From contig OZ244905.1 of assembly GCA_965221695.1 (NCBI GenBank), forward strand, positions 288,001-352,000: a stretch of 64,000 bases of DNA. Direction: 5' to 3'. Position numbers and translations under genes: made by a program. The notes under the pieces are model-generated. The model saw only the letters and a program-made list of their open reading frames with translations, was not told the DNA's origin and did not search any database. The DNA comes from Gammaproteobacteria bacterium (GTDB taxonomy: Bacteria > Pseudomonadota > Gammaproteobacteria > Eutrophobiales > Eutrophobiaceae). Below, piece by piece: positions 35,150-55,632 of this stretch; position 1 is the first letter of the stretch; every line of letters starts with the position of its first letter.

Positions 35150-35632
35150 GTGGATAGAAATATCGTTTTTTGCGCTGTAATACTGATCGCAGTCGCAACG
35201 GCCTACTCGTTTCTGGGCATCGACCGCATGGCAACAATGGATGAAGTTGTGTCTGACGATCTTGGAGCCAGCCAGATGAGGCCGCTTGCGCAAGCGGAAA
35301 TGGTTTCTGCGCAAACTGCAGAACAACAACGCAAGGCAACATTGCGCGCTGAGTATGAGAAACTGGAACAGGCCCGGGAAGGGGTCAGGAAACAGCTTGG
35401 ATTGCTCAAGTTCCGGTTATGGAAATTGCGCGTGTCGCCTGAACAGTCCAGAGCAATACAGGAACAGATGCAGCAAGGTTATACTGCGCTGAAAAATCCT
35501 CCGTTGCTAGGCGCATTCTCAAGTGTGGATGAAATTGCCCGCGAAATAGAAAAGATGAGCGGGATCAGCGTCAACCTGAAAACTCTGGAGATGAAAGTGG
35601 AGAACCAGCTCGCTGGCCAGAATCCCCGCTAA
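35150..35632 (+). CDS. Hypothetical membrane-anchored coiled-coil protein
   Basis: N-terminal hydrophobic helix followed by heptad-rich Glu/Gln/Lys sequence; fills the gap between divergent and convergent neighbours. Confidence 0.6.
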   Translation: MDRNIVFCAVILIAVATAYSFLGIDRMATMDEVVSDDLGASQMRPLAQAEMVSAQTAEQQRKATLRAEYEKLEQAREGVRKQLGLLKFRLWKLRVSPEQSRAIQEQMQQGYTALKNPPLLGAFSSVDEIAREIEKMSGISVNLKTLEMKVENQLAGQNPR

Positions 35633-36920
35633 GCTCCGCGTCAGCCACCAGCGCCCCGGCGCTTTCGTTATACTGCTTGACCAGCACAGTCATTATGCTG
35701 TTGGGACGGTGAGATTCGCCCGAAACCGCGATGGCTGTGCGCAAGTAATTTGGGGAGTAGCCGAAACGGACCTTTTTTCCGTTAATTTCTCCTGTATTGC
35801 TTTCAACCAGGATCTCGAAGCGCCGGCCCACATAGCCGCGCATATAGTCATGTTTCATCTGCGCAGCCAACTGCAGCAATTGCGCGCAACGTTGTTTCCT
35901 TAGCTGGCGCGGCAGTTGTCCCGGCAACAGGGCTGCCCGTGCGCCGGCGCGGGCTGAGTATGGAAAAACATGGATATGTGGAAACCCGATTTCCCGACAA
36001 AAATCCATGGTTTGCCGCCATTCTTGTTCGGTTTCGCCAGGAAACCCGGCGATAATGTCCGTGCTGATGTTCAAGTCAGGAACCCGTTGTCTGAGCCGCT
36101 CAACCAGCTTGATAAACTGCTTAGGTTTGCAACGCCGGCCCATGCGCCGCAATACGCTGTCACAACCGCTTTGCATGGGCAGATGCAAGTGAGGCATAAA
36201 TCCAGGTTCATTGAACAGTTCAAAAAAGTCTTCACCGATATCCCAAGGCTCCAGCGAACCTAGTCGTAATCTGGGAATCTTGGTTTCAGCGAGGACCGTT
36301 TTGATCAATGCCGGCAGGTTGGTTCCCAAGTCATGTCCATAACCGCCGATATGCACGCCGGTCAGAACTGCTTCCTGGATCTGATATGAGTGTAATGCAT
36401 TGATCTCCTCAACTATCTGCCTGATTGTCCGGCTGCGCTCCGCGCCCCGGGCCAGCGTGACAACGCAGAATGCGCATCGATGCCGGCAGCCGTCCTGTAT
36501 CTTGATGAATGCCCGGTTGCGCCCCCGGCTGAACAGGGCAGTTGTTCCCGGTTCTGTGGTTGCATTCGGCATGGTCTTCAAGTCCAGCCGTTGTGTTACG
36601 ATATCCGTCAGGCGATCCTTGTCCTGGTTGTCCACGACCAGGTCTATGCCCGGCAATTGTTTGACTGCGTCCGGATGCAGGCTCGAATAACAACCGCTGA
36701 CCACCAGCTTGGATTGTTTGTTGCTTCGCCGGATGCGCCGAATCAACTGCCTGGATTTTTTCGCCGCCTCACAAGTTACCGCGCAGGTATTGACGACTAT
36801 CAGGTCGGCATCTTCCGTGCCTGTGGTCAACTGGTTTCCCTGCGCCTGGAAAGCCGATGCCCAGCGTTCCAGTTCGGCCTCGTTCAGGCGGCACCCCAGC
36901 GCTTTAAGCGCAACTTTCAT
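35571..36920 (-). CDS. mtaB: tRNA t6A37 methylthiotransferase
   Basis: [38 protein letters not shown] and a G..PNY tail typical of MtaB. Confidence 0.85.
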
Positions 36921-38070
36921 AGTTCTCGATGGTCGCGCGCGCGATGATCAGCTTCTGTATCTCGGAGGCGCCTTCATAGATGCGTAGCGCGCGTATTTCA
37001 CGATACAGTTCTTCCACTTTTTCGCCTCGCGTTACGCCACGCCCGCCGAATAATTGGACCGCCTGATCTATGACCTGCTGCGCGGCTTCGGTTGCATGCA
37101 ATTTTGCTATGGCGGCTTCCCGCGTGATACGTTCCACCACGCAGTCCCGGGTCCAGGCGGCACGGTACACCAGCAGCGCGCTGGCATCGATAGCCACAGC
37201 CATGTCGGCAAGCTTGCCCCGGGTCATCTGCATATCTGCAAGAGTTTTGCCAAAGAGCTGCCGTGTGTTGGTGTGTCTGAGCGTTTCTTCCAGCGCACGC
37301 CGGGCGAAACCCAGCGCCGCAGCGCCAACGGTTGAGCGAAACATGTCTAAAGTGTCCATGGCTACTTTGAAACCCTCTCCGGGGCTGCCCAGCAGGTTTG
37401 TACTGGGAACCCTGCAATCCTTGAATTCAAGCCGGGCCAGGGGGTGGGGCGCAATCACTTCGATGCGCTCAGCGATTTCCAGGCCCTGTGTGCCGGCATC
37501 GACAATGAAGGCGCTGAGGCCCGCTGCGCCGCTTTCCTCACCGGTTCGGACAAACAGGGTATAAAAATCGGCGATACCGCCATTGGACACCCATGTCTTC
37601 TCGCCATTGATGATGTAGTCGTCGCCATCCGGCGTGGCTGTGGCGCTCAGCGCCGCGACATCGGAACCGGCCGCGGGTTCGGACAAGGCAAATGCAGAAA
37701 TCTTCTCGCCTTTGCGGACCGCAGGAAGGCGAGCGTTTTTTTGTTCCTGGTTCCCAAACAGCGCGATAGCGCCGCTGCCCAGTCCTTGCATTGCAAAAAC
37801 AAAATCAGCAAGACCGGAATGGCGCGCCAGGATCTCACGGATAAGACATAATGATCTGACATCCGGAGAGTTGTCGGAGTCGGGCGCCGGCGCGGCATGA
37901 TTGAGCCAGCCGCCGTCAGCCAGGAGTTTTACCAGTCTCTTGCAGGTCTGATCGACATTATCCGGATGCCGGCCGTTCAGTGCGCGCCTGGCCCACTCAT
38001 CCAGTTCAGTCGCCAGCAGTCTATGCTGATCCGTAAAAAAAGGCCAATCAAGAAAACTGTGGTCAATCAC
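36904..38070 (-). CDS. Acyl-CoA dehydrogenase of anthraniloyl-CoA (abm) clusters
   Basis: [26 protein letters not shown] and [10 protein letters not shown]; same partners as the Azoarcus abm cluster. Confidence 0.85.
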
Positions 38071-38872
38071 CTTTGAATTCCGCTTGGCTCTTATTCATAA
38101 AAGCCATGTAGGCGCGCCGGAAATCCTCCGTCTGCATGCAGATTGCCTGGGCCTGGGCCTCAGCTTCAAGAGCTTGATCCGGCGCCATATTCCATTCCTG
38201 ACGCAACATGGTTTTGGTGACGCCATGGGCAAATGTCGGTCCGTTTGAAAGCCGTTCGGCCAGTTTGCGCGCCTCAAGCGCCAACTCGTCTGTCGTTGCC
38301 AGAAAGTTATAAAATCCCCAACGATGGCCTTCTTCCGCGCTCATGCTGCGACCGCTGTAGAGCAGTTCCGAAGCGCGTCCGTGGCCGATAATCCTGGGCA
38401 GAATGGCGCAGGCTCCCATATCGCATCCGGCTAGTCCGACGCGGGTGAAAAGAAACGCGGTTTTTGCTTCCGGCGTGGCGATGCGCATATCGCTGGCCAT
38501 CGCGATACAGGCGCCGGCGCCCACGCAAACGCCGTCCACTGCAGCAATGAGCGGTTGCGGGCAGTAGAGCATGGCCTTGATGAGGTCGCCGGTCATTCGG
38601 GTAAACGCCAGCAGGTCTTTCATATTCATTTTCGTCAATGGCCCAATGATGTCGCGCACATCGCCACCGGAACAAAAATTCCCCTGCGCGCCGGCAATGA
38701 TCACAACTTTAACGTCATTGGCATCGGACAGGAGACGGAATGTATCACGCAATTCCGCGTAGGAGTCAAATGTCAGAGGATTCTTTTTCTCAGGACGGTT
38801 AAGGGTCAGTGTGGCTATGCCGTCGGAACAGGACCAGGAAAAATGTTGTGGGCGATGATCTTGCATATTCAT
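38063..38872 (-). CDS. Enoyl-CoA hydratase/isomerase of abm clusters
   Basis: [33 protein letters not shown] and [10 protein letters not shown]; start set at MNMQ. Confidence 0.88.
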
Positions 38873-38898
38873 TTGGTTTACCAGGCTCGTTATCGGGC

Positions 38899-39663
38899 TT
38901 ACATGACCTCGCCGCCGGCTATCGGAATGGACTGGCCGGTAATCGATTCGCTGCCAGGCAGGCATAACCACGCGACTGCCGTAGCCACTTCCTGCGGTTC
39001 AATAAACCGATGTTGCGGATTCATTGATTTCAGGCGTGTCTCTGCGTCCTCTCGTGTCATACCGGTCTTGTCCATAATCCTGGATATCGCTTCCGTGATC
39101 AGGTCCGTATTGGTATAGCCGGGACAGATCGCGTTGACAGTCACGCCGGTATTGGCCAGTTCCAGCGCCAGGGACCGGGTCAGGCCGATCATACCGTGCT
39201 TGGCCGCGCAATAGGCGGATACGTAAGCATATCCAGTCAGTCCGGCTGTGCTTGCAATATTGACGATACGACCCCAATCGGCCTCCAGCATTCCATCAAG
39301 CGCTTGCTTGCTGCAATAAAACGCGCCGTTCAAGTTCACAGCCAGAGTCTGTTCCCAGTTCTTGCCGTCAATACGCGCAAATGGATTACTGTAAACTGCG
39401 CCGGCATTGTTCACCAGGATGTCGACCGGACCAAAAATGGTTATCGCCCGGTCAAACCCGGTTCGCACGGCGCTTTCGTCGGTCACGTCAACCTGTATTG
39501 AGTTAGCCCGTTTCAGTTTTTTCTCATGGGCATGCAAAACGCTTTGTGTCCGACCCATGAGGGTAATCCTGGCGCCCAAACGGTCCAGTTCGGCAGCGAT
39601 GGCGGCTCCTATGCCTTTGCCTCCACCTGTAACCACTACATGTTTATCGCTGAGCGCGGTCAT
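38899..39663 (-). CDS. Short-chain dehydrogenase (3-hydroxyacyl-CoA dehydrogenase-like, abm type)
   Basis: [17 protein letters not shown] and CPGY. Confidence 0.88.
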
Positions 39664-39709: not shown

Positions 39710-40867
39710 TCAACGATTAACCGTGTGGCCGCAGGCCATGCCGGCAATGATCATCTTCTGTATGTTGGATGTCCCTTCCACTACTTGCAGAGATTTGGCG
39801 TCGCGGTAAAACCGTTCCGCAGGATATTCAGTGGAATAGCCATAGGAACCGAAGATCTTCATGCACTCGTTCGCGCTGTGCACGGCCGCCTCGGATGCCG
39901 CCAGTTTAGCCATGGAGGTCTCATACTGATTGGGCTTGCCTTGGTCTTTCAGCCAGGCAGCCTTGTACACCAGCAAACGCGCGGCCTCGTGTTCTACTGT
40001 CATTTCAGCGATCTGGGACTGGATCATCTGATGCCGAGAAATGGGCTGGCCGAATTGTGTGCGTTCATTGGCATAGTCTATCGCAAGTTGCAGCGCGCCA
40101 CCGGCCACGCCCAAGGCGCCGGCCGCGCAACCGAGACGGGTATTATTCAACTGCCACATGCACATCCTGAAACCATTATTCAGCTCTCCGAGCAGGGCGC
40201 TACGGGGGATGCGCGCGCCCTCAAACACGAATTCGCCTGTTGGAGAACAGTGCAGGCCCAGTTTGGTCTCTATCGGCCGCGCCACGCAACCCTCCAGTTC
40301 CTTAGGTTCTATGATAAAGCAACTGATGCCCTTGTTGCCTTTTTCCCTGTCCGTGTAGGCATAGAGCAGCCCGGCATCGCCGATGTGAGCGTTGGAAATC
40401 CAGATCTTGCTGCCGTGTAATTCAAAATAATCGCCCTTGTCAATAGCATAGGTCTTCATGCTGGCAACATCGGAACCCGTATCCGGCTCAGTCATGGCGA
40501 AGAAGCCGATTTTTGTGCCGCTGATCCAGCCCGGGATATATTTCTCCTGTTGCTCCCTGGAGCCGAACTTTGCTATGGAAAGCGGTGGGCCGAGGTTTTG
40601 CATATTGAACGGCAAGCGCCAGGAAGCCGACACCCGGGCAATCTGTTCCGCCATCAGCGCTGATTCCAAAAAGCCCATCCCGTTTCCGCCAAGTTGTTCC
40701 GGCAGGGCGCAGGAAAAAAAACCAAGATCACCCATTTGCGCCACGCGTTCCTGTTTAAATTCCCGATTTTTTTCCTCTTCCTCCAGGGTAGGGGCTATCT
40801 CTTCCAAGGCGAAGCGTCTGGCGGTGTCCTGCACCAGTTGCTGTTCTTCAGTTAACTCAAAAAACAT
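39710..40867 (-). CDS. Glutaryl-CoA dehydrogenase, non-decarboxylating type
   Basis: ACAD motifs; YAYTD, SPTGE, YGYSTEYP.. and V-E-G (not the Y-E-G of decarboxylating GCDH), resembling the Desulfococcus enzyme; adjacent to gcd genes. Confidence 0.8.
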   Translation of the reverse strand: MFFELTEEQQLVQDTARRFALEEIAPTLEEEEKNREFKQERVAQMGDLGFFSCALPEQLGGNGMGFLESALMAEQIARVSASWRLPFNMQNLGPPLSIAKFGSREQQEKYIPGWISGTKIGFFAMTEPDTGSDVASMKTYAIDKGDYFELHGSKIWISNAHIGDAGLLYAYTDREKGNKGISCFIIEPKELEGCVARPIETKLGLHCSPTGEFVFEGARIPRSALLGELNNGFRMCMWQLNNTRLGCAAGALGVAGGALQLAIDYANERTQFGQPISRHQMIQSQIAEMTVEHEAARLLVYKAAWLKDQGKPNQYETSMAKLAASEAAVHSANECMKIFGSYGYSTEYPAERFYRDAKSLQVVEGTSNIQKMIIAGMACGHTVNR

Positions 40868-40880
40868 CGTAGTCTCTCAC

Positions 40881-41102
40881 TTATTCGGTCTTGATAGACA
40901 TCAAGGGTTGATCTTCCTCTACCGCATCCCCTTCCTTGACGTATATTTCTTTGACTGTACCGTCACAGGGCGCATATACTGGCGTTTCCATCTTTAATGC
41001 CTCAATAATAAGTATCTCGTCATCTTCTTCGACTTTTTCATCCACAGTCACCGAGATTTTCCAGATAGCGCCGGAGAGAGGCGCCAACACTTCTTCCGTC
41101 AT
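40881..41102 (-). CDS. gcdC: Biotin carboxyl carrier subunit of Na+-transporting decarboxylase
   Basis: 73-aa biotinyl domain with EALKME. Confidence 0.85.
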   Translation of the reverse strand: MTEEVLAPLSGAIWKISVTVDEKVEEDDEILIIEALKMETPVYAPCDGTVKEIYVKEGDAVEEDQPLMSIKTE

Positions 41103-41119
41103 TATTATCCTCCAAGCAG

Positions 41120-42223
41120 TTATTTCAATATAGTCAGAAATATGCCGGCCGCAATCACGGTTCCGATCACACCGGCAATATTGGGTCCCATCGCAAACAT
41201 AAGCAAATAATTCTTTCTATCCGCTTCTGAACCGACTTTCTGTGCGACACGGGCCGCCATCGGCACCGCCGATACGCCCGCGGCGCCTATCAGCGGATTG
41301 ATTTTATGCGCCGTGAAGACATTGATCAGTTTAGCCAGTAATACACCACTTGCCGTGCTGATCATGAATGCGAACAGGCCGAGCAGGAAAACCAGGATAA
41401 CATCGGCATGTAAAAAGCGGTCTGCGCTCATGGTGGCGCCGATACTGACGCCCAGGAAAATGGTCGCGATATTCATCAGGGAATTGCGCGCGGCATCCGT
41501 CAGACGCTCGACCACCTTTGATTCCCGGAACAGGTTGCCCAGCATAAACATAGAGATCAACGGAGCCGACGCGGGCACTATCAGGATAATCACCAGCGTG
41601 GCAACGATGGGAAACAGCAGTTTTTCTTTTGCCCCGACCTTGCGCCCTTTGCGCATGCGAATCTTCCGTTCATCTTCCGTGGTCAACAGGCGCATTATCG
41701 GCGGCTGGATGATGGGCACCATGGCCATGTAGGAATAGGCGGCGACGGCGCAGGCTCCCAGCAGGTGCGGCGCCAGTTCAGCCGCCAGAAAGATGGTTGT
41801 GGGTCCGTCTGCGCCGCCGATAATACTGATAGTAGCCGCGTCCTGCAGATCGAAACCCATCCACCAGGCAAGAAAAAACGTCAGGTATACCCCGACCTGC
41901 GCGCCGGCGCCAAGAAAGATAAGGCGGGGTTGCGCAAGCAGCGGGCCAAAATCTGTGAGCGCGCCCAGTCCGAGGAAGATCAGGGGAGGTATGATGCGCC
42001 ACTCGATTCCGTGGTGATAGAAGCGCCACAGCAGCCCGTCTCCAGGGTCCATTAACCCGGTCAGGGGCAGATTGGCTAGCAGAATGCCAAATCCTATCGG
42101 CAACAACAGTAGTGGTTCATATTGTTTGGCTATGGCCAGGTAGATTAATGCCAGTCCTATCAGCCACATTGCCAGCAATTCGCCGGTGACCGCGAAAATG
42201 CCCATGTTTTCTATAAATGCCAT
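41120..42223 (-). CDS. gcdB: Na+-translocating decarboxylase beta subunit
   Basis: YEPLLLLPIGFG, IIGGADGPT, AAYSYMA, GVSAVPMAAR and AMGPN (OadB/GcdB family). Confidence 0.95.
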   Translation of the reverse strand: MAFIENMGIFAVTGELLAMWLIGLALIYLAIAKQYEPLLLLPIGFGILLANLPLTGLMDPGDGLLWRFYHHGIEWRIIPPLIFLGLGALTDFGPLLAQPRLIFLGAGAQVGVYLTFFLAWWMGFDLQDAATISIIGGADGPTTIFLAAELAPHLLGACAVAAYSYMAMVPIIQPPIMRLLTTEDERKIRMRKGRKVGAKEKLLFPIVATLVIILIVPASAPLISMFMLGNLFRESKVVERLTDAARNSLMNIATIFLGVSIGATMSADRFLHADVILVFLLGLFAFMISTASGVLLAKLINVFTAHKINPLIGAAGVSAVPMAARVAQKVGSEADRKNYLLMFAMGPNIAGVIGTVIAAGIFLTILK

Positions 42224-42231
42224 GAATCGAG

Positions 42232-42360
42232 CTACTCGTCCTGTTCAGTATCCTTGCTGTCCGGCGTCAGCGCCAGCAGTTTAATGATCACATACAACAT
42301 CCCCATACCGGCTGCCACGCCGCCGATACCGTTAAAGAAAACTTCCAATACTTGTTCCAT
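42232..42360 (-). CDS. Small membrane subunit of the decarboxylase (OadG/GcdD-like), 42 aa, absent from the ORF track
   Basis: Translated by hand: MEQVLEVFFNGIGGVAAGMGMLYVIIKLLALTPDSKDTEQDE; single TM helix; 15-bp and 8-bp gaps to its neighbours. Confidence 0.8.
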   Translation of the reverse strand: MEQVLEVFFNGIGGVAAGMGMLYVIIKLLALTPDSKDTEQDE

Positions 42361-42375
42361 AAGTCGAATTCTATA

Positions 42376-44109
42376 CTATCTTCTGATGATCCTGGGCAGC
42401 ATCATCTGGTGTCTTGGACAGATTGAGCGAGGATTCTGGTGCGCGGCGCCGGCAAACGCCGTGAGATAATTTCTGAGTTCAACCAGGTCCACGATTTCGT
42501 CGACGAGGCCGTAACGCGCGCAATATTCAGGGTTGGAATGTTGCCGATATTGCTCGGCCAGGGCGTTCATCTTGTCAGCCACCTCATCCAACGGTTTACC
42601 CGCGTCTTTTTGTTTGACTGCGCGTCTTGAGTACATGGCAACCGCCGCGGTTTCTCCATGCATGACCGCAATCTCGGTAGCCGGGGTGCCTAGCGTGAAC
42701 GCATTGTGGCGATTCGCGGTCGGTCCACCCATCAGGTAATGGGCCGCGGCCGTGCCTTTGCGCAGAACGACAAGCATCATGGGAATGTCGGTTTGCTGTA
42801 TAGAATAAATCAGGGACTGGCCCAGACCCAGCAACTCGGCTTTCTCTGCCAGCTCGCCAACGTCTATGCCTGAAGTATCCTGGAACCAGACAATCGGAAC
42901 CCGGTCTCGACCGCAGTGAGTGACAAACTCGTTCATCTTGATCAGCCCCTGGCGATACAGTTTCCCTCCCATACCCGGATAGTCTGCATACTCCGGATAG
43001 CCTTTGCCGAGGTAACCGGAACGATTTCCGATACATCCAACCACGAAACCGTCCAGTCTGCACAACCCCGTATAAACCTCCGGGCCATAGTCGGGACGGA
43101 ATTCCATATGTTCACTGGCATCTACTAACCGGGCCAGAATTTCGTCGAATGAATACACTTCTTTCTGGTTGGAGGGCAGCAGGCAATACAAATCTTCAGT
43201 CGCGTAGGCTGGCTCAGCAGGCTCTGCTACCCGAAAAAAACGGGGTTTATAAGCGGGTATGGCCTCCATGTAGTCTCTGATGCCATCCAGCACCTCGGTC
43301 TCTTCCTCGAAGACCTCGGTAAAGAAGCCCGTCTCATGGTAATGAGTCTCGACCCGTCCAGGTGGTTTGGCGCTGAATGAACGGGTCATTTCAACCAGTT
43401 CTTCCAGGGCCTCAGCGCTGAATCCACCTTTCGGGGACATACCCGAGACGATGCCAACGCCACCAACAGCTATGTTCGCGTTCTTGTGAGCCAGGAGAAT
43501 AGTGGGACTGATGCCATGGTAGCCGCCGCCGGCAGGATTTGTGCCGTAGATGCCGGCAAGCACGGGGATACCAAGCTGGTTCAATTCCGCATGGCGAAAG
43601 AATGTGGCGCCCGATCCGCGCCGGTTGGCATAGAACTTTTCCTGCTCATCCAGTTTCACACCACTGCAGTTAACCAGCCAGATCAAGGGCACATTAAGTC
43701 GCTTGGCCAAGTCGGTAACACGTAAGATGTTCTCCGATTGGCCCGGCAACCAGGCGCCGGCCAGCACCTTGTTGTCAAAACCGATCACCACTGCCCAACG
43801 TCCCGCCACCCTGGCAAGCCCGTCTACCACATTGGTTGAACCGTTGGCATTGTCTGAAGGATTGTACAAACTGTGCAAAGGCCGCCAGGAACCCGGATCG
43901 ATGAGATGTTCCAGGCGTTGCCAGACAGTCATTGTGCCGCGCTGGTTGATCTGTTCGGTGGAGAAACCCGCCTGCTCGATATCTTTTCTGCATTGCGCAA
44001 TGTCCGCTTCCACCTGTTTAAGCTGTTCGATGCTTGCGGCAGCGCGCTTGATCCGGCCGGACTTCAACTGTTTGCCAAATCGTTGCATGTTCTCGAAATA
44101 AGATTTCAT
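42376..44109 (-). CDS. gcdA: Glutaconyl-CoA decarboxylase alpha (carboxyltransferase) subunit
   Basis: DNKVLAGAW.PGQ, NCSGVK.DEQEK, GTNPAGGGYH.ISP, GKLYRQGLIKMNEF and HQMMLPRII, all as recalled for Acidaminococcus GcdA. Confidence 0.92.
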   Translation of the reverse strand: MKSYFENMQRFGKQLKSGRIKRAAASIEQLKQVEADIAQCRKDIEQAGFSTEQINQRGTMTVWQRLEHLIDPGSWRPLHSLYNPSDNANGSTNVVDGLARVAGRWAVVIGFDNKVLAGAWLPGQSENILRVTDLAKRLNVPLIWLVNCSGVKLDEQEKFYANRRGSGATFFRHAELNQLGIPVLAGIYGTNPAGGGYHGISPTILLAHKNANIAVGGVGIVSGMSPKGGFSAEALEELVEMTRSFSAKPPGRVETHYHETGFFTEVFEEETEVLDGIRDYMEAIPAYKPRFFRVAEPAEPAYATEDLYCLLPSNQKEVYSFDEILARLVDASEHMEFRPDYGPEVYTGLCRLDGFVVGCIGNRSGYLGKGYPEYADYPGMGGKLYRQGLIKMNEFVTHCGRDRVPIVWFQDTSGIDVGELAEKAELLGLGQSLIYSIQQTDIPMMLVVLRKGTAAAHYLMGGPTANRHNAFTLGTPATEIAVMHGETAAVAMYSRRAVKQKDAGKPLDEVADKMNALAEQYRQHSNPEYCARYGLVDEIVDLVELRNYLTAFAGAAHQNPRSICPRHQMMLPRIIRR

Positions 44110-44234: not shown

Positions 44235-44633
44235 ATGTCTATGCGGATATTACAACCACCCGGCTGGCCATATCCCCGAGGTTACTCCAATGGCATCATG
44301 GCGCGTGGCAGGATGATCTTCATCGCCGGACAAATCGGTTGGGATGAAACAAATATCATACAAAGCGACCGCCTCGCTGACCAAGTTCGCCAGGCCCTGA
44401 AAAATACCCTTGCAGTGCTGAGCGAAGCGAATGCCGGACCTGAACATGTCGCCAGGATGACCTGGTATGTCGTTGATAAACAGGAATATTTGTCGTCCCT
44501 GAAAGAAATCGGAAAAGCGTACCGGGATGTTATGGGCAACAACTACCCGGCAATGGCATTGTTAGAGGTGTCCGGATTACTTGAGGACAGGGCAAAAGTG
44601 GAAATCGAAACCACAGCCGTCCTACCAGATTGA
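44235..44633 (+). CDS. RidA/YjgF family protein (abm-cluster type)
   Basis: LQPPGW..PRGYSNG, AGQIGW and AKVEIETTAV. Confidence 0.9.
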   Translation: MSMRILQPPGWPYPRGYSNGIMARGRMIFIAGQIGWDETNIIQSDRLADQVRQALKNTLAVLSEANAGPEHVARMTWYVVDKQEYLSSLKEIGKAYRDVMGNNYPAMALLEVSGLLEDRAKVEIETTAVLPD

Positions 44634-44861: not shown

Positions 44862-45290
44862 ATGAAAACCTACACCGCCACGCCGGCAGACATCAAACCT
44901 GAGTGGCATCTTGTTGATGCCAAGGGAAAAGTCCTTGGCAGGCTTGCTACAGAAATTGCCAGGCGCTTGCGTGGAAAACACAAGCCGGAATATACCCCGC
45001 ACATGGATACCGGCGATTATGTGATCGTCATCAACGCAAAAGATGTCCAGGTAACGGGAAACAAGGCAAGCAGCAAAACTTATTATCGCCACACCGGCTA
45101 CCCAGGCGGCATCAGGTCTATCACTTTCGATAAGTTGATCCGCTCAAAGCCGGAACGGGTCATTGAAAAAGCAGTCAAAGGCATGTTGCCCAAAGGCCCC
45201 CTGGGCCGGGATATGTTTCGCAAGCTGCGGGTTTATCCCGACAGCAATCATCGCCATGACGCGCAACAACCTAAACCGCTGGAATTATAA
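44862..45290 (+). CDS. rplM: 50S ribosomal protein L13
   Basis: [25 protein letters not shown] and [10 protein letters not shown]. Confidence 0.98.
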
Positions 45291-45318
45291 CGGCGCACAC
45301 TACTACTCGGACACAGAT

Positions 45319-45711
45319 ATGGCAGACGGGATTTATTACAGCACCGGGCGCAGAAAAAGCGCCAGCGCGCGCGTATTTCTGAAGAAAGGCGAGGGGAATA
45401 TCGTCATCAATAATCGCACTATGGAACAATATTTCGGCAGGGAAACCGGTAGGATGATCGTACGGCAGCCATTGGAAAAGCTCGATATGCTGGAAAACTT
45501 CGATATCAATGTCACTGTCAGTGGTGGCGGGATTTCCGGCCAGGCCGGCGCAATCAGGCATGGGATCACTCGGGCGTTGATCAGATATGATGAAGGTCTA
45601 CGCAAAACACTGCGCCAGGCAGGGTTCGTGACTCGTGACGCACGCGCAGTCGAACGCAAGAAGGTCGGCCTGCACAAAGCCAGGAAACGTCCGCAATACA
45701 GTAAACGCTAG
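45319..45711 (+). CDS. rpsI: 30S ribosomal protein S9
   Basis: [25 protein letters not shown] and PQYSKR; start ATG at 45319. Confidence 0.98.
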
Positions 45712-45900: not shown

Positions 45901-48294
45901 ATGAGTAACGGTCTTAAAATAATCTGTCTTGGCGGGGGGCCGGCATCGCTTTATTTCTCCCTGCTGATGAAAAAAGCAAATCCCGCTCATAATATTCAAG
46001 TCATTGAACGGGGTCCCTCCGATGCTACCTGGGGTTTCGGCGTGGTGTTTTCCGATGACACCTTACGTGGGTTTATGGAAGCCGACCCGCCTAGTTACAA
46101 ACGCATCGTGGAACAATTCGCCTACTGGGACCGGATAGAGACCCGCATACACGGCGCAAGCGTGGTGAGTGGCGGGCACGGATTCTGCGGATTGTCGCGG
46201 CTTAAGCTGTTGAATGCGTTGCATGATCGTTGTGAGGAACTGGGTGTAGCCCTGAAATTCAACACCGATATTACCGACCTGGCGCAGCTTGAGATCGATA
46301 AACACGATCTGGTCATAGCCGGAGACGGCATCACTTCTATGCTCCGCAGCGCCTATGCGGAGGCATTCGGCGTCAGCATGGACTGGCGGTCCAATCGTTT
46401 CTGCTGGCTGGCGACTACCTTGCCGTTGGATAATTTTACTTTTACTTTTCGGAAAAACGAACATGGCTGGTGGTGGACACACGGCTATCGCTACGAACAA
46501 GGCATGTCTACCTGGATCGTGGAATGCAACCGGCAGACCTGGTTGAACGCAGGAATGGATGCGTTCTCGGAACAAGACACCCGCGCTTATATCGAGGAGG
46601 TGTTCAGGGAAGACCTGCGCGGCCATCCTGTCATCACCAACCGCTCGGTCTGGCGCGAATTCCCTGTTGTGCGCAATGCCAGGCTCTACCACAGGAACAT
46701 CGTGTTGTTGGGTGATGCCGGGCGATCGGCCCATTTTTCTGTCGGTTCCGGCACCAAGCTTGCCATGGAGGACGCGATTACACTGGCCGGCATATTCCGG
46801 GATCAGGGCGATTGCGTCCCGTCCGCGCTAAAGGCATACCAGCAAATCCGTAAACCAGAGGCGGATCGTCTGCAACGCGCTGCGGTGACCAGTTTGCGCT
46901 GGTTTGAGAATGTGGAGCGCTATGCCGGCCAGGATCCATTGCAGTTCACATTCAACATGCTTGCCCGCTCCAAGCGGGTCACCTATGACAACCTGAGACT
47001 GCGTGATCCCTCATTTATTCGCGCCACAGACCAGTGGTTTGCAACCAATACTCAGGCGTTGACCGGTTTCGACGACATCGATACGGAAAACCCTGTTGCG
47101 CCGATGTTTCAACCGTTCAGAATAGGGCGGATGCGAGTGGAAAACCGCGTTCAGCTCTCCGCTATGTGCCAGTATTGCGCGTCAGACGGGGTGCCTGGTG
47201 AATGGCATTTTGTGCATTACGGCTCACGGGGAGTGGGCGGAGTCGGCCTGGTGAATACGGAAATGTTGTGCGTGTCGGCAGACGCTCGAATCACCCATGG
47301 CTGCGCCGGATTATGGAATGCGGAGCAAACAGAGCAATGGCGGCGTATCTGCGTGTTTATCCATCAGCACAGTAGGGCAAAAGTCTGCGCGCAAATCGGT
47401 CATGCCGGCCGCAAAGGCGCGACCTGCATCCCTTGGCAAGGCGGGATCGATCAACCACTGCCGTCTGAGGACTGGGAGATCATGGCGCCGTCGCCGTTGC
47501 CGTACCTGGAGCATAGCCGGGTCCCGCGGGAGATGACCGGCGCGGATATGGAGCGAGTGGAACAAGATTTCGTGAACGCAACGAAAAACGCGATTGCCGC
47601 CGGTTTTGATATGCTGGAGTTGCATATGGCGCACGGTTACCTGCTGTCGTCCTTCATTAGCCCTTGCGCCAACCTGCGCCGGGACGAACATGGCGGGGAC
47701 ATCAATGGCCGGGCTCGTTTCCCGTTGCGAATCTTGCGCGCCGTGCGCCGGATCTGGCCCGTAGAGCGTCCTTTGTCGGCGCGCATCTCAGCTACTGACT
47801 GGACTGGCGACGGGCTCTCCGAACAGGATCTGCTGACTTTCGTCCGATTGTTAAAAGACAACGGCGTCGACCTCATCAATGTCTCCACCGGACAGGTGGT
47901 CAGCTACGAAGAACCTGTCTATGGGCGAATGTACCAGGCTCCGTTTTCTGACCTGATCCGCAACGAGGTAGGGATTGCGACCGTGGTAGCCGGCAATATT
48001 ACCAATGCCGATCAAGTCAATACGCTGATCGCCGCAGGCAGAACCGACCTGGTGGCGCTGGCGCGCCCGCTTATGAACGAACCCCAGTTCGTGCTGAATG
48101 CTGCGGCCCGTTACGGATATCGCGCGCAGCGCTGGCCGGAACAGTACGCCGCGGGCAAATTCGCGGCCGAGTTGATTGCTGAGCGGGAGCGTAGCGAAGA
48201 GATCGAGCTGAAAATCAGCGCAAAACCCCCGAACCCACAGGAAATACTGGCCGTCGCGATCGCCAGGGGTGAAGTGTTTCTGGAGAAACCCTGA
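45901..48294 (+). CDS. Bifunctional 2-aminobenzoyl-CoA monooxygenase/reductase (AbmA) / salicylyl-CoA 5-hydroxylase family
   Basis: N-terminal FAD monooxygenase (GGGPA, WGFGVVFSD, GDA..AHFSVGSGTKLAMED) fused to an OYE barrel (QIGHAGRK, HMAHGYLL). Confidence 0.92.
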   Translation: MSNGLKIICLGGGPASLYFSLLMKKANPAHNIQVIERGPSDATWGFGVVFSDDTLRGFMEADPPSYKRIVEQFAYWDRIETRIHGASVVSGGHGFCGLSRLKLLNALHDRCEELGVALKFNTDITDLAQLEIDKHDLVIAGDGITSMLRSAYAEAFGVSMDWRSNRFCWLATTLPLDNFTFTFRKNEHGWWWTHGYRYEQGMSTWIVECNRQTWLNAGMDAFSEQDTRAYIEEVFREDLRGHPVITNRSVWREFPVVRNARLYHRNIVLLGDAGRSAHFSVGSGTKLAMEDAITLAGIFRDQGDCVPSALKAYQQIRKPEADRLQRAAVTSLRWFENVERYAGQDPLQFTFNMLARSKRVTYDNLRLRDPSFIRATDQWFATNTQALTGFDDIDTENPVAPMFQPFRIGRMRVENRVQLSAMCQYCASDGVPGEWHFVHYGSRGVGGVGLVNTEMLCVSADARITHGCAGLWNAEQTEQWRRICVFIHQHSRAKVCAQIGHAGRKGATCIPWQGGIDQPLPSEDWEIMAPSPLPYLEHSRVPREMTGADMERVEQDFVNATKNAIAAGFDMLELHMAHGYLLSSFISPCANLRRDEHGGDINGRARFPLRILRAVRRIWPVERPLSARISATDWTGDGLSEQDLLTFVRLLKDNGVDLINVSTGQVVSYEEPVYGRMYQAPFSDLIRNEVGIATVVAGNITNADQVNTLIAAGRTDLVALARPLMNEPQFVLNAAARYGYRAQRWPEQYAAGKFAAELIAERERSEEIELKISAKPPNPQEILAVAIARGEVFLEKP

Positions 48295-48570: not shown

Positions 48571-49884
48571 ATGAAACAATACTCAAATGACGAGTTGTCG
48601 GGCCTGGTAAAAGAAGATTCGGTTCATAAAAAAGTCTATACGGACCCTGAAATCTTTGACCTGGAAATGGAGCGCATCTGGAACAAGTCCTGGATATATG
48701 TGGGACATGACAGCCAGGTCAAACAGCCGGGCGATTATTTTGCCACAAGCATCGGCAAGCAACCGGTTGTCATGACCCGACACCGGGATGGCAAGGTGCA
48801 TGTGCTGTTCAACCGTTGCAGTCACAAAGGCGCTCAAGTTGTGGGAGACACTTGCGGAAACCTGCCGCAACTGCGTTGCAGTTACCATGGTTACGTGTTC
48901 GATACCGATGGGACATTGCTCCACATCCCCAGGGAAGAAGGCTATAGCGGGGTTGGATTTGGCAAAGGCAGCGCCGAATCCAACATGCAACAAGCGCCGC
49001 GTGTCGACAGTTATCACGGACTGGTGTTCGCCAGTCTGACAAGCAACGGGCCGGATTTACAAACATGGTTAAGCGGCGCCGCGGCATCCATCGATAACTT
49101 GGTGGAACGCTCTCCTGAAGGGCGCATTGAAATTGCCGGCGGTTGTTTCCGCTACCTGCATGATTCCAACTGGAAGATGTTTGTGGAAAACCTGAACGAC
49201 GCCATGCACCCCATGGTTGTGCACCAGTCTTCCAGCGGCACCGCAAAGCGAGTATTTGATGAACGCTTGAAAGAAGGCGATCCGGTCCCGTTTGAACTGG
49301 AGATGCTGGCGCCGTTTACTAACAACTACGAGTTCTTTGAAAAAATGGGACTCACGGCCTGGGATTACGGGCATAGCGTCACCGGTGGAAAATTCAGCAT
49401 TCACTCAGCCTATTCGCCCATACCCGGTTACATGGACGCTTTGATCGATAAATACGGCGAACAGAAGGCCAAGGAAATCCTCGCGGTAAACCGCCACAAT
49501 ACCGTTGTCTACCCCAGTTTTACCTTGAAAGGCGCCATCACTTCGATCCGTGTCGTCAAGCCGGTGGCGGTAGATAAGACGGTTATCGAGTCATGGGTGT
49601 TCAAGCAGGTGGGCGCTCCTGAGGAACTGTTCCGGCGATCCATCACCTATTGCAACCTGATCAATTCCCATGCCAATCTGGTTGGCCCGGATGACTATGA
49701 AGCCTATCACCGCTTGCAGCATGGCTTGCAGACAGAAGACGGCAATGAATGGGTGAGTCAGCATCGTTATCTAGGCAAGGACGAAGTGGATGAGGATGGC
49801 GCCCGGCACGCGGCGGGCACCTCCGATATGGTCTTTCGCCACCAGTTCCAGACCTGGAAGAACTACATGGTTGGCCTTCAATGA
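48571..49884 (+). CDS. Rieske ring-hydroxylating oxygenase alpha subunit, IadD (indole-3-acetate oxygenase)-like
   Basis: CSHKG...CSYHG; NWKMFVENLNDAMHPMVVH; RSPEG.IEIAGGC, FSIHS.Y and RHNTV segments resemble my recollection of Variovorax IadD (not aligned). Confidence 0.88.
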   Translation: MKQYSNDELSGLVKEDSVHKKVYTDPEIFDLEMERIWNKSWIYVGHDSQVKQPGDYFATSIGKQPVVMTRHRDGKVHVLFNRCSHKGAQVVGDTCGNLPQLRCSYHGYVFDTDGTLLHIPREEGYSGVGFGKGSAESNMQQAPRVDSYHGLVFASLTSNGPDLQTWLSGAAASIDNLVERSPEGRIEIAGGCFRYLHDSNWKMFVENLNDAMHPMVVHQSSSGTAKRVFDERLKEGDPVPFELEMLAPFTNNYEFFEKMGLTAWDYGHSVTGGKFSIHSAYSPIPGYMDALIDKYGEQKAKEILAVNRHNTVVYPSFTLKGAITSIRVVKPVAVDKTVIESWVFKQVGAPEELFRRSITYCNLINSHANLVGPDDYEAYHRLQHGLQTEDGNEWVSQHRYLGKDEVDEDGARHAAGTSDMVFRHQFQTWKNYMVGLQ

Positions 49885-49965
49885 CGCCATTGTCAATGCT
49901 TCGGACAATCAACATAGCCAGAGCTTTTCTGCGCTCTTCTTTTTTTAGAACAGGACTGAATTCTC

Positions 49966-50466
49966 ATGCAGACCCCGCAGCAAACCAACCCGCCTGATCT
50001 CCGATCATTGGAACAATTTCTGTATCACGAAGCGCGCCTGCTGGATGAACAACGCTGGGAGGAATGGAATGCCCTATACCTTGAAGACGCTGAATACTGG
50101 GCGCCGGCGGCGCCGGACCAGGAGGATCCGCACAACCATGTCTCGCTTATCTATGAAACGGGGCTGCTCAGGGCCGTGCGCATCAAACGTTACAGGCACC
50201 CCAATGCTTTTTCCCTGCAACCTCAACCCCGTAGCGCGCACCTGGTAAGCAATGTCATGCTGGACAGCTTTGATGAGAATACCCTGGAGTGCCAGGTCAA
50301 TTCCCGTTTCATCATGTTGCAGTATCGGCGCGAGAAACAGGATGTGTTTGCCGGGACCTACCAGCACAAACTGCGCATTGAGGGGAATGAATTCAGGATC
50401 GCCGCCAAGCGTATCGACTTGCTCAACTGCGACGCGCCGCTGGAAAATATACTCATATATTTCTAA
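49966..50466 (+). CDS. Ring-hydroxylating oxygenase beta subunit (IadE-like)
   Basis: FLYHEARLLD, YWAP and KRIDLLNCDA. Confidence 0.9.
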   Translation: MQTPQQTNPPDLRSLEQFLYHEARLLDEQRWEEWNALYLEDAEYWAPAAPDQEDPHNHVSLIYETGLLRAVRIKRYRHPNAFSLQPQPRSAHLVSNVMLDSFDENTLECQVNSRFIMLQYRREKQDVFAGTYQHKLRIEGNEFRIAAKRIDLLNCDAPLENILIYF

Positions 50467-50766
50467 ATGCCCTCCGCACAAGGGAAATCCACTGATTCCG
50501 CCGCGTACCGGAAATTCAGGCGCATTCACAACAGATTGTCCTGGATACTGATCACCGCGCTGGTCGGCCTGGCGCTGGCATTTGATCTGTTCAACGTCTA
50601 CGCAAAAAAGCTCATGGGCGCTCCGCTGGTAGAACACAGCGTGATTTCCATCGGCATGTTCATTGCGCTGTTGATCATCCTGATTATTCTTGCCGCCGCA
50701 GTGTATTACACACTCAGGATCAATGCCGCTTACCTGGAGCTGCGCGAGTCCCAGGACGATGACTGA
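50467..50766 (+). CDS. DUF485/YjcH-like membrane protein
   Basis: Two TM helices; overlaps the actP-like gene, the canonical pairing. Confidence 0.8.
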   Translation: MPSAQGKSTDSAAYRKFRRIHNRLSWILITALVGLALAFDLFNVYAKKLMGAPLVEHSVISIGMFIALLIILIILAAAVYYTLRINAAYLELRESQDDD

Positions 50767-52318
50767 CCTGAATTATCCTGCGATTGCGTCGTTTGTACTG
50801 TTTATTATCGCCACATTGTTTATCACCGTGTATGCCGCGCGCCGCACACGTTCCAGAAAAGACTTCTACGTGGCAGGCAACGCCATCGGGGGCATACAGA
50901 ACGGCATCGCCATTTCCGGGGATTATATGTCCGCCGCTTCTTTCCTGGGCCTGGTGGGGCTTTTTTTTCTTGGCGGCTATGACACCATCTATTTTATCGT
51001 AAACCTGATTCTGAGTTGGGCGGTGGTGCTGTTTCTAATCGCCGAAAAGCTGCGCAACCTGGGCTCCTATACCTTTGCGGACGCGGTGTCGGTCAGGCTG
51101 GCGACACGACCGATACGGATACTCGCAGCTACCGTCACCCTGGCTGTAGCCATCCCGTACATGCTGGCGCAGATGGTCGCCGCCGGCGCTTTGTTCGAAT
51201 CTCTGTTCGGCCTCAGTTTCAGCCAAGGTGTGCTGGCAGTTGGCGTTCTGATGACTATTTATATCACTTTCGGCGGTATGATCGCGACCACCTGGGTGCA
51301 GATCATCAAGGCCGCGCTGCTGGTTGGCGGCGGCACCGTTCTTACAGTGGGGGTGCTTGCCAGTTTCAACTTTGACGTCAACAGATTGGCCGAACTGGCC
51401 GTGGCGGCGCACCCGCAAGGCATAGCCATCATGCAGCCGGGACTACTCTACCCGGACCTTATTTCCGTAGTTTCCCTGAGCCTCGCGTTTATCGGCGGCA
51501 CTGCGGGATTGCCCCATGTCCTGATGCGTTTTTTTACCGTGCCGGACGGTGTACAAGCCCGGCGTTCGGCTGCCTGGGCCATGGGAATCATCAGCTATTT
51601 CCAATTGCTGGTACTGTTCATCGGCCTTGGAGCGATAGTATTGTTGACGAACAATCCTGAATTCAGCGCCGGCGGTCTGCAGTTGCGTGGCGGCAGCAAT
51701 ATGGCGGCGATACACCTTTCGCAAATCATTGGCGGCAATATCTTCATGGGGTTTATCTGCGCGGTCGCATTTGCCACCATTCTCGCAGTAGTGTCAGGTC
51801 TGATGCTGTCCGCCGCCGCCACTATTTCCCACGACCTTTATGCCGGCGTTATCCGCAAAGGAGAATGCGACGAAGCTGAAGAGTTACGCGTGTCTCGATT
51901 GACAGTAGTCGTGTTGAGCGTTATCGGTATCTTGCTTGCCCTGATGTTCGAGGGCCAGAATGTGGCCGTGCTGGCCACCTTGCCTCTGGTAATCGCGGCC
52001 AGCGCCAACTTTCCCATTCTGTTCCTGTTCATGTACTGGAAAGGTTTCACCACCCGTGGCGCGCTGTTCGGCGGTTACACCGGATTGGCTCTGGCTGTCA
52101 GTCTGATCATTCTTGGCCCGACCGTCTGGGTTAACGTACTGGGTTACGAACAAGCGTTGTTTCCCTACACTTATCCGACCTTATTTTCCATGGGCGCTTG
52201 TTTCCTGTTTGCCTGGTTTTTCTCGATCACAGACAACAGCCCGCGCGCCGCCGCGGAAGCCGCCGCGTTTGCCGAACAGCAGCGCCGCTCACATTTGGGC
52301 GAACTGTCGTGCGGCTGA
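50759..52318 (+). CDS. Sodium:solute symporter, ActP-like
   Basis: NGIAISGDYMSAASFLG, GGMIATTWVQIIK, GTAGLPHVLMRFFTVP and AVAFATILAVVSG. Confidence 0.92.
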   Translation: MTDLNYPAIASFVLFIIATLFITVYAARRTRSRKDFYVAGNAIGGIQNGIAISGDYMSAASFLGLVGLFFLGGYDTIYFIVNLILSWAVVLFLIAEKLRNLGSYTFADAVSVRLATRPIRILAATVTLAVAIPYMLAQMVAAGALFESLFGLSFSQGVLAVGVLMTIYITFGGMIATTWVQIIKAALLVGGGTVLTVGVLASFNFDVNRLAELAVAAHPQGIAIMQPGLLYPDLISVVSLSLAFIGGTAGLPHVLMRFFTVPDGVQARRSAAWAMGIISYFQLLVLFIGLGAIVLLTNNPEFSAGGLQLRGGSNMAAIHLSQIIGGNIFMGFICAVAFATILAVVSGLMLSAAATISHDLYAGVIRKGECDEAEELRVSRLTVVVLSVIGILLALMFEGQNVAVLATLPLVIAASANFPILFLFMYWKGFTTRGALFGGYTGLALAVSLIILGPTVWVNVLGYEQALFPYTYPTLFSMGACFLFAWFFSITDNSPRAAAEAAAFAEQQRRSHLGELSCG

Positions 52319-52330
52319 GTGAAGAATACT

Positions 52331-55558: not shown

Positions 55559-55632
55559 TCGCTAACCTGCAAACACTGGCCGTTTCGGATACCCGTTTGC
55601 TCAGGAGCCGACGCTGCCACAGGAGATGAAAT

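Follow-up and report, generated by a model that had tools for sequence, protein, structure and literature searches.

A predicted sodium-pumping glutaryl-CoA cassette among abm-type genes of an oxygen-using gammaproteobacterium

In excerpts of one published account (PMC5852087), the conversion of glutaryl-coenzyme A (CoA) to crotonyl-CoA is assigned to a split route in obligate anaerobes and to a single enzyme, GcdH, in aerobes and facultative anaerobes. Textbooks take the same view. A window of 64,000 nucleotides from an uncultured marine gammaproteobacterium of the family Eutrophobiaceae (the whole stretch analysed; assembly GCA_965221695.1, contig OZ244905.1, positions 288,001 to 352,000) carries five adjoining genes of the split type (39710..44109, minus strand), predicted to encode a dehydrogenase and a sodium-pumping glutaconyl-CoA decarboxylase (Gcd), among abm-type genes of the aerobic anthranilate-CoA pathway. 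This raises the question of what such a cassette does in an oxygen-using organism. The comparisons favored, with a probability moderately above even, a two-step conversion of glutaryl-CoA into crotonyl-CoA by the five gene products, which would replace GcdH within an abm-type pathway. The wider proposition was given even chances: that glutaryl-CoA is the end point of the abm pathway (closed by GcdH, and here by dehydrogenase plus pump), and that this clade of dehydrogenase and GcdABCD is a regular energy-saving device replacing GcdH in oxygen-respiring marine Gammaproteobacteria and Acidobacteriota. Gene identities, signature residues, the absence of gcdH, distribution and synteny were read from the sequence. 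Genomes are designated below by G and loci by L, the source genome being G000.

Identity of the five-gene cassette

The cassette consists of the following genes, listed with the basis of each assignment.

42376..44109, minus strand: gcdA, carboxyltransferase (alpha) subunit of glutaconyl-CoA decarboxylase, 577 amino acids (aa) (PDB and Pfam matches)
42232..42360, minus strand: small membrane peptide of 42 aa with a single helix, probably an anchor of the delta/OadG-like kind (place beside gcdB)
41120..42223, minus strand: gcdB, beta subunit of a Na+-translocating decarboxylase, 367 aa (TIGR01109, OAD_beta)
40881..41102, minus strand: gcdC, minimal biotin carrier, 73 aa (Biotin_lipoyl)
39710..40867, minus strand: acd, glutaryl-CoA dehydrogenase of V-E-G type, predicted to be non-decarboxylating, 385 aa (NF045552, 3MPI/3MPJ)

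The gaps between these genes, recomputed from the coordinates of the open reading frames (ORFs), were 15, 8, 17 and 13 bp, followed by 46 bp to a gene for a short-chain dehydrogenase/reductase (SDR), identical to the values in the original prediction, a note made from this DNA alone that had proposed a non-decarboxylating dehydrogenase coupled to a Na+ pump.

GcdA matched the A subunit of glutaconyl-CoA decarboxylase in the PDB (1PIX, 743.3 bits over residues 2-576; 3GF3, 703.5 bits), with all other carboxyltransferases in that search at or below 142 bits, and contained a Pfam Carboxyl_trans domain (323.8 bits). It was the sole gene of its kind in the genome; the runner-up (146 bits, G000:2438411-2440009) adjoined a gene for an acyl-CoA dehydrogenase (ACAD) and one for a biotin-domain protein. 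GcdB, encoded by the genome's only OAD_beta gene (518 bits), scored 493.4 bits against TIGR01109 (cut-off 190.6) and 389 bits against the solved OadB (6IVA/6IWW). Its residues D139, Y165, N309, G313, S318 and R325 aligned with OadB D203, Y229, N373, G377, S382 and R389, which we take, from the mutagenesis literature on OadB, to be needed for Na+ transport. The 73 residues of GcdC amounted to a bare biotinyl domain (Biotin_lipoyl, 62.2 bits) that matched the biotin domains at the C termini of OadA, pyruvate carboxylase and BCCP, with K37 placed within E-A-L-K-M, the usual biotinyl motif being A-M-K-M. Homologues of the 42-aa peptide were found 34 times at the same position beside gcdB in other loci, and three of these relatives gave weak matches to Pfam OAD_gamma, at 25.6 (L084), 16.3 (L049) and 16.0 bits (L064), all below the cut-off of 27.

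The dehydrogenase contained three ACAD domains (Pfam) and matched NF045552 (GlutCoADH_Des) best among NCBIfam models at 429.7 bits, the next family scoring 355 bits, 75 lower. Its best PDB matches were 3MPI/3MPJ (349.9 bits; next 302.8), and its scores against solved glutaryl-CoA dehydrogenases of the canonical type did not exceed 188.9 bits. The V-E-G signature, in place of Y-E-G, that the original prediction had read in this protein was confirmed; the segment reads SLQVVEGTSNIQK and comprises V363-E364-G365. V363 and E364 aligned with V366 and E367 of 3MPI, and R84 with R87. All five canonical GcdH sequences aligned read Y-E-G, and the second ACAD encoded downstream (36904-38070) reads I-Y-E-G. 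The exchange of Tyr for Val before the catalytic Glu was reportedly identified by Wischgoll in 2010 as the key to non-decarboxylation. In an alignment of 19 sequences, only glutaryl-CoA dehydrogenases shared R84, presumably the residue contacting the distal carboxylate of the substrate glutaryl-CoA: members of the two V-E-G clades and the five canonical GcdH have this Arg, whereas five other ACADs of the genome have D, G, C, A and A at this position; the second ACAD lacks Arg there. Identity of the dehydrogenase was 72-81% to proteins of Woeseiaceae and Acidobacteriota, 43-48% to the Desulfobacterales type and about 30% to the five canonical GcdH. A canonical decarboxylating GcdH was rejected as its identity, given the Val in place of Tyr, the roughly 30% identity and the at most 188.9 bits to such enzymes vs. 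349.9 bits to 3MPI.

The association of this dehydrogenase with the decarboxylase genes recurs in other genomes. Across 81 loci (the best 80 of the GcdA search plus L022), a full-length ACAD of the acd type stood beside the gcd genes in 58, every one of them with V-E-G; most of the remaining 23 were short contigs, Desulfobacterales, Myxococcota or congeners with inserts. GcdA, GcdB, GcdC and the peptide are predicted to form a Na+-translocating glutaconyl-CoA decarboxylase, and for the module as a whole, with acd as its dehydrogenase, this identity is highly probable.

Relation to GcdH and to the abm pathway

The absence of gcdH, a point raised in the original prediction, was borne out, as none was found in the genome. 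When a canonical GcdH (L103:4022-5182; 483 bits to 2EBA, 385 bits to human GCDH) served as query, the best match in the genome was the V-E-G acd itself, at 31% identity and 183 bits, and canonical gcdH was therefore considered absent. The genome has 11 ACAD-family ORFs, of which the paralogue L004 scored 165 bits to canonical GcdH. Other paralogues were rejected as GcdH by comparison with the PDB: L005 resembled isovaleryl-CoA dehydrogenase, L006 butyryl-CoA dehydrogenase and L009 ACAD10/11, and L007 was without a close match. The NCBIfam scan returned no decarboxylating GcdH model for any scanned ACAD, a result that cannot decide on the presence of gcdH.

Canonical GcdH (E<=1e-80) occurred in 118 of 400 genomes of the class and in one of the 44 cassette carriers (0/37 and 1/5, besides its absence from G385 and G000). 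The exclusion was significant by Fisher's test (p = 1.8e-5), with the reservation that related genomes are not independent and metagenome-assembled genomes (MAGs) are incomplete. This pattern suggests that cassette and GcdH behave as alternatives for one job.

The genes around the cassette are as follows.

38899..39663, minus strand: SDR (3-hydroxyacyl-CoA / 3-hydroxybutyrate dehydrogenase-like), 254 aa, abm-cluster gene (PRK12429)
38063..38872, minus strand: crotonase-family enzyme (ECH, PRK08258 type), abm-cluster gene (NF006107)
36904..38070, minus strand: second ACAD (ACAD2), I-Y-E-G, abm-cluster gene (ACAD domains)
35571..36920, minus strand: mtaB, tRNA methylthiotransferase, last same-strand gene (TIGR01579, 387.3 bits vs. 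cut-off 357)
44235..44633, plus strand, divergent from gcdA: RidA family (enamine/imine deaminase type), abm-cluster gene (Ribonuc_L-PSP, 77.6 bits)
44862..45711, plus strand: rplM and rpsI, between RidA and the abmA-type genes (TIGR01066, 206.1 bits; NF001099, 191.3 bits)
45901..48294, plus strand: abmA-type bifunctional aryl-CoA monooxygenase/reductase, 797 aa (NF006101)
48571..56364, plus strand: iad-like operon of Rieske alpha/beta, ActP-type symporter, CoA ligase, thiolase-like, DUF35 and SDR genes (family matches)

The longest ORF of the crotonase spans 38063-38971, and its likely start is M34 at 38872, the NF006107 match beginning at residue 32. Crotonase and second ACAD overlap by 8 bp, and second ACAD and mtaB by 17 bp. 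The latter gene probably has a housekeeping role and keeps the same place in congeners. The ribosomal protein genes rplM and rpsI (window positions 44862-45711) sit in the middle of this catabolic region, with AbmA and RidA staying upstream of gcdA in most congeners.

Enzymes of AbmA type join a flavin monooxygenase domain to an OYE reductase domain. The AbmA-type protein matched NF006101 (salicylyl-CoA 5-hydroxylase/oxidoreductase) over profile positions 1-763 of 768 with 1031.7 bits; since this is below the cut-off of 1078, its aryl-CoA substrate is a deduction, and the sequence does not distinguish between 2-aminobenzoyl-CoA and salicylyl-CoA. Genes of this type (E<=1e-150) were found in 16 of 400 other genomes of the class, and the closest relatives, at 66-68% identity, were those of G144, G425, G429 and G441. 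The SDR scored 231.9 bits against PRK12429 (cut-off 258) and the crotonase 468.9 bits against NF006107 (cut-off 330). Nine abmA loci of other families were compared: crotonase orthologues (392-439 bits) and ACAD2 orthologues (391-579 bits) stood beside abmA in all nine, RidA orthologues (145-203 bits) in eight, and SDR orthologues (234-329 bits) in eight and also in L113. Because these orthologues recur beside abmA in other families, SDR, crotonase, ACAD2 and RidA make up the conserved lower abm set, in line with the original assignment of the downstream genes to the abm type.

Canonical gcdH occupied the corresponding place in other families. In L103, L118 and L119 the RidA orthologue was directly followed by canonical gcdH. 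The operon of G144 was ordered SDR-ECH-ACAD2-RidA-GcdH-MarR (GcdH, 483 bits to 2EBA) and that of G359 ACAD2-RidA-GcdH-AbmA, while G340 had a RidA-GcdH pair approximately 11 kb downstream of AbmA; these three genomes belong to three different families. In G307, GcdH adjoined an iad-like operon approximately 20 kb from AbmA. Overall, canonical GcdH was present in 14 of 16 abm-bearing genomes vs. 104 of 383 others (p = 1.5e-6), and of the two abm-bearing genomes lacking it, G385 carries the cassette. Since gcdH sits inside the abm cluster in three other families, this genus would seem to have swapped it for the sodium-pumping pair, and such a swap within the cluster supports glutaryl-CoA as the end of the abm pathway. 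The hint of this end point in the original prediction thereby gained independent support, both from the three families and from the 14 of 16 genomes.

The placement of the cassette among lower-pathway abm genes implies that ring carbon would leave the pathway as glutaryl-CoA. AbmA was encoded in 12 of the 20 non-congeneric gammaproteobacterial carriers of the cassette vs. 16 of 400 genomes in the class. In a Woeseiaceae locus (L114; G429:C14:15000-34999), an AbmA of 68% identity is encoded within an iad-like operon of ligase, thiolase-like, DUF35, SDR, AbmA, Rieske alpha and Rieske beta genes, a layout which, as far as gene order can indicate function, ties AbmA directly to an iad-type route, and in L056 the cassette itself directly adjoins iad-like genes. 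Excerpts of a preprint give anthranilic acid as the end product of the iad pathway (bioRxiv 10.1101/2025.10.25.684584). On this evidence, the link of the cassette to the abm pathway was considered slightly better than evenly supported.

Substrate, product, Na+ coupling, co-transcription and the chemistry leading from the AbmA product to glutaryl-CoA were deduced from these comparisons, and the scheme would run as follows. Anthranilate, probably supplied by the neighbouring iad-like operon, would be activated and then dearomatised by AbmA with O2, and RidA, SDR, crotonase and ACAD2, as their synteny suggests, would turn the ring product into glutaryl-CoA. From its residues and homology, the V-E-G dehydrogenase is expected to oxidize glutaryl-CoA to glutaconyl-CoA without loss of CO2, its electrons probably passing via electron-transfer flavoprotein (ETF) and ETF:quinone oxidoreductase (ETF-QO) to the aerobic respiratory chain. 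By homology, GcdA would transfer the free carboxyl group to biotin on the 73-aa GcdC, and GcdB, for which the 42-aa peptide would serve as anchor, would couple decarboxylation of carboxybiotin to Na+ export. Ring carbon would exit as glutaryl-CoA, and the energy of decarboxylation would be kept as a sodium gradient.

Distribution, host and competing explanations

A GcdA orthologue (E<=1e-100) was found in all 22 other species of the genus and in none of four genomes from other genera of the family. On whether the module is common in aerobic Gammaproteobacteria, which would count against the original prediction, the outcome was mixed: it is rare class-wide (one of 399 other genomes in an even sample of the class, one further genome being unscored), but widespread in particular marine lineages. 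Sampling one genome per species throughout the prokaryotes gave at least 524 loci for GcdA relatives, and identities and neighbourhoods by lineage refer to the best 80 of these, all from MAGs. After the own genus, GcdA was 75-79% identical in Woeseiaceae, Wenzhouxiangellaceae, Lysobacterales, Oceanospirillum and Pseudomonadales and 72-78% in Vicinamibacterales and Ca. Marinacidobacterales, followed by Myxococcota, one Planctomycetota and Desulfobacterales (70-73%).

Trees of GcdA and of the ACAD showed the same split between Gammaproteobacteria with Acidobacteriota (56 GcdA rows, 51 ACAD rows) and Desulfobacterales with Planctomycetota and Myxococcota, with support of 99 on both sides. The split was shallow in GcdA (branches 0.04 + 0.048) and deep in the ACAD (0.89 + 1.43). 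When rooted on the genome's own paralogues, the two V-E-G clades joined with weak support (53), too little to fix a single V-E-G origin or the direction of any transfer between anaerobes and aerobes. Strong COX1 matches were present in all tested carriers from Gammaproteobacteria (14/14), Acidobacteriota (15/15) and Myxococcota (2/2), with weaker matches in three of five Desulfobacterales and none in the Planctomycetota genome. The capture from deltaproteobacteria or firmicutes envisaged in the original prediction was not supported, as both trees place the window genes in the separate clade of Gammaproteobacteria and Acidobacteriota. This separate clade, together with the oxidase-bearing carriers, argues that the cassette was not recently taken from a strict anaerobe and that its lineage circulates among oxygen-respiring marine bacteria.

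The flanks of the cassette in eight other lineages (58 proteins) held no consistent partner except the iad-like genes of L056 and a family III CoA-transferase in G385. In the latter genome, the only other carrier in the class sample, the CoA-transferase gene (L112:13575-14804, 388 bits) lies approximately 2 kb downstream of gcdA and is a candidate glutarate-activating enzyme. Near the cassette of another gammaproteobacterial MAG, a 1238-aa ORF (L040:305-4021, minus strand) matched Pfam Anthrax_toxA with 87.7 bits over residues 715-788.

The oxygen-using character of the host, assumed in the original prediction, was corroborated by four COX1-family genes (best 530.5 bits) and ETF-QO (172.8 bits); the product of one of the four, 773 aa long, is possibly a nitric-oxide reductase. 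An NqrB match remained below the cut-off (132.5 vs. 349.9 bits; RnfD-like, G000:C1:2913317-2914060), other Na+ users not having been searched. The genome is apparently without Na+-NQR, and the Gcd pump could be among its few primary sodium pumps.

The source genome is a single contig of 3,539,060 bases, 96.85% complete, and the GC content of the cassette (0.536-0.540) is close to the genome-wide 0.550. Contigs from three runs of three studies, one of which may be the source sample, spanned all junctions between 36132 and 48294 with zero differences, and the gene order of the cassette recurred across congeneric genomes. A chimeric assembly, a concern raised in the original prediction, was excluded because these contigs bridge every junction without a difference, and by the recurrence in congeners. 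At window position 40714, inside the ACAD gene, one contig of run X2 (depth 4.5) was one base short, which may be a low-depth assembly error. Counts of promoter-like sites (7 vs. 8.6 expected) and terminator-like sites (17 vs. 11.9 +/- 3.3 expected) were uninformative on operon structure; in the same uninformative scan, no minus-strand terminator-like site fell within the intergenic gaps of the operon.

Within the genus, insertions are frequent in the short gcdB-gcdC spacer, which is a hotspot for them (L023:11056-17731, L027:4555-10039, L025 and L026). The insert of L027 encodes a UvrD-type helicase of 969 aa that carries topoisomerase zinc ribbons, that of L023 a 975-aa protein of no known kind and an MmeI-type restriction-modification enzyme, and those of L025 and L026 measure 1066 and 512 bp. 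In L023 and L030, the retrieved flank ends before gcdC and acd are reached. The acd and SDR genes were contiguous, with gaps of 17-135 bp, in six of the ten congener loci with a complete cassette ACAD. The gene that separates them elsewhere encodes, in L029 (12785-15229), an 814-aa NirB-type nitrite/sulphite reductase on the opposite strand.

Several observations weigh against the proposed role of the cassette. The 429.7 bits of acd fall below the curated equivalog cut-off of NF045552 (470), and since its identity to the Desulfobacterales enzymes is likewise only 43-48%, its product is deduced from two residues. The 42-aa peptide had no family match, in Pfam even at E<=10, and a wider sodium economy is without support because no NqrB exceeded the cut-off. 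Among the ten congener loci, an opposite-strand nirB-like gene stands between acd and SDR in three (L029, L031 and L032), so that co-transcription of the cassette with the abm genes is not conserved genus-wide, and the SDR is missing in one; the gcdB-gcdC spacer is interrupted by inserts, which measure 0.5-5.5 kb in three congener loci and exceed 6.6 kb in two. Canonical gcdH lay near the abm cluster in only four of the 16 abm-bearing genomes, and in most other lineages the cassette stands alone among unrelated neighbours. AbmA was found in two of 15 acidobacterial carriers (one partial) and in none of eight others (five Desulfobacterales, two Myxococcota and one Planctomycetota), and as 13 of the 15 Acidobacteriota lack it, the cassette does not serve the abm pathway exclusively. 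By chemical reasoning, plain deamination and retro-Claisen ring opening of the AbmA product are expected to give 4-oxopimelyl-CoA, the beta-oxidation of which would probably not yield plain glutaryl-CoA, leaving at least one step unexplained.

Many of these points would fit a general glutaryl-CoA module made of the same enzymes (e.g., for the breakdown of lysine, tryptophan or odd-chain dicarboxylates) that came to lie by chance beside abm genes yielding no glutaryl-CoA. Such a module would account for the carriers without AbmA, for the tolerance of operon-breaking inserts in congeners, and for the fact that abm genes are not near the cassette in any non-congeneric locus, the two being on different contigs in G385 and approximately 370 kb apart in G425; the co-occurrence of abmA and gcdH could then just mark versatile heterotrophs, and, on chemical reasoning, glutaryl-CoA would not be reached from the AbmA product in any simple way. 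It does not, however, account for canonical gcdH right after RidA in the abm clusters of three families, the enrichment of gcdH in abm-bearing genomes, the place next to RidA that the cassette holds in this genus or its direct contact with iad-like genes in L056, and we consider chance placement a serious but rather unlikely explanation. Action of the dehydrogenase and decarboxylase on an abm-specific substituted C5 or C7 dicarboxyl-CoA (oxo- or hydroxy-glutaryl-CoA or -pimelyl-CoA) instead of glutaryl-CoA appeared improbable. The long branch (0.89 + 1.43) that parts this ACAD clade from the characterised Desulfococcus type, the score under the NF045552 cut-off and the 4-oxo group of the expected ring-opening product would agree with it, but GcdA is 70-79% identical across non-congeneric lineages including Desulfobacterales and scores 743 bits to 1PIX, the same cassette occurs in genomes without abm genes, the carboxylate-binding Arg is kept at the same position, and the cassette excludes canonical GcdH, an enzyme of plain glutaryl-CoA. 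Least credible was a cassette used only without oxygen, or in reverse for Na+-driven carboxylation of crotonyl-CoA, with no role in aerobic energy conservation. The nirB-like gene adjoining the cassette in congeners and the possible nitric-oxide reductase among the COX1-family proteins point that way, as do excerpts describing the system from strict anaerobes (PMC5852087); against this, the cassette lies on the same strand as, and closely spaced with, the genes of a pathway that begins with an O2-requiring enzyme, and it is the genome's only glutaryl-CoA route. Oxidation and Na+-coupled decarboxylation of glutaryl-CoA as the closing steps of an abm-type pathway is the reading that we retained.

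Significance and comparison with known systems

The kinds of enzyme are already known, and the setting and the ACAD clade are new; likewise new would be the exchange of gcdH for the cassette at the same place in an abm cluster and the comparative support for a glutaryl-CoA end. Literature searches returned anaerobe contexts only, whether they addressed the cassette (in aerobes, in sponge symbionts or in marine MAGs) or a link between abm and glutaryl-CoA, many subscription papers lying outside their coverage. If the proposed role is correct, each glutaryl-CoA would yield extra sodium-motive force in oxygen-respiring organisms, decarboxylation-driven sodium pumping would not be confined to energy-starved anaerobes, and such genes in metagenomes would not signal anaerobic aromatic degradation. 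The operon points to glutaryl-CoA as a testable end of aerobic anthranilate-CoA degradation, a long-open question, and connects the abm pathway with marine relatives of the iad auxin-degradation operon.

The GcdABCD complexes of Acidaminococcus fermentans and Clostridium symbiosum (1PIX, 3GF3) have the same parts, namely carboxyltransferase, OAD_beta pump, biotin carrier and small membrane peptide, with the alpha subunit alike from end to end. The GcdC and GcdD of these fermenters are clearly longer than the bare 73-aa carrier and the 42-aa peptide of the window, whose host, in contrast to theirs, respires oxygen. Unlike the fermenter systems, the window cassette also brings its own dehydrogenase, and its glutaconyl-CoA would therefore come from the oxidation of glutaryl-CoA instead of the fermentation of glutamate. 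OadGAB (OadB-OadG, 6IVA/6IWW) is similar in its beta subunit (389 bits), in the six conserved residues and in the weak matches of peptide relatives to OAD_gamma, but it differs in that the window encodes a carboxyltransferase of acyl-CoA type in place of the OadA TIM-barrel and a biotin domain as a separate protein, and approximately 60 OadB residues between 62 and 119 are without counterpart in GcdB.

Canonical GcdH (2EBA, 3SWO, human 1SIQ) shares with acd the predicted substrate, the Arg and the place next to RidA in abm clusters, whereas it reads T-Y-E-G where acd reads V-V-E-G and is about 30% identical; since GcdH releases CO2 itself, it conserves no energy in this step. The abm clusters of Azoarcus evansii for aerobic 2-aminobenzoyl-CoA metabolism, attributed to Schuhle 2001 and compared by description only, similarly combine a two-domain monooxygenase/reductase with neighbouring genes of beta-oxidation type, and the excerpts of a 2015 review, which term the later steps of aerobic anthranilate-CoA degradation simply "beta-oxidation", do not mention a Gcd cassette (PMC4539516).

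The dehydrogenase of Desulfococcus multivorans (Acd, 3MPI/3MPJ), the best PDB and NCBIfam match, resembles the window enzyme in the Val before the catalytic Glu, the Arg and the linkage to gcd genes. According to excerpts of PMC5852087, it is non-decarboxylating and works with Gcd, the same pairing being found in Syntrophus. The window enzyme differs in its 43-48% identity, its separate clade, its score below the equivalog cut-off and the A-type oxidases of its hosts, and while the Desulfococcus enzyme follows benzoyl-CoA reduction, acd follows a pathway that depends on O2.

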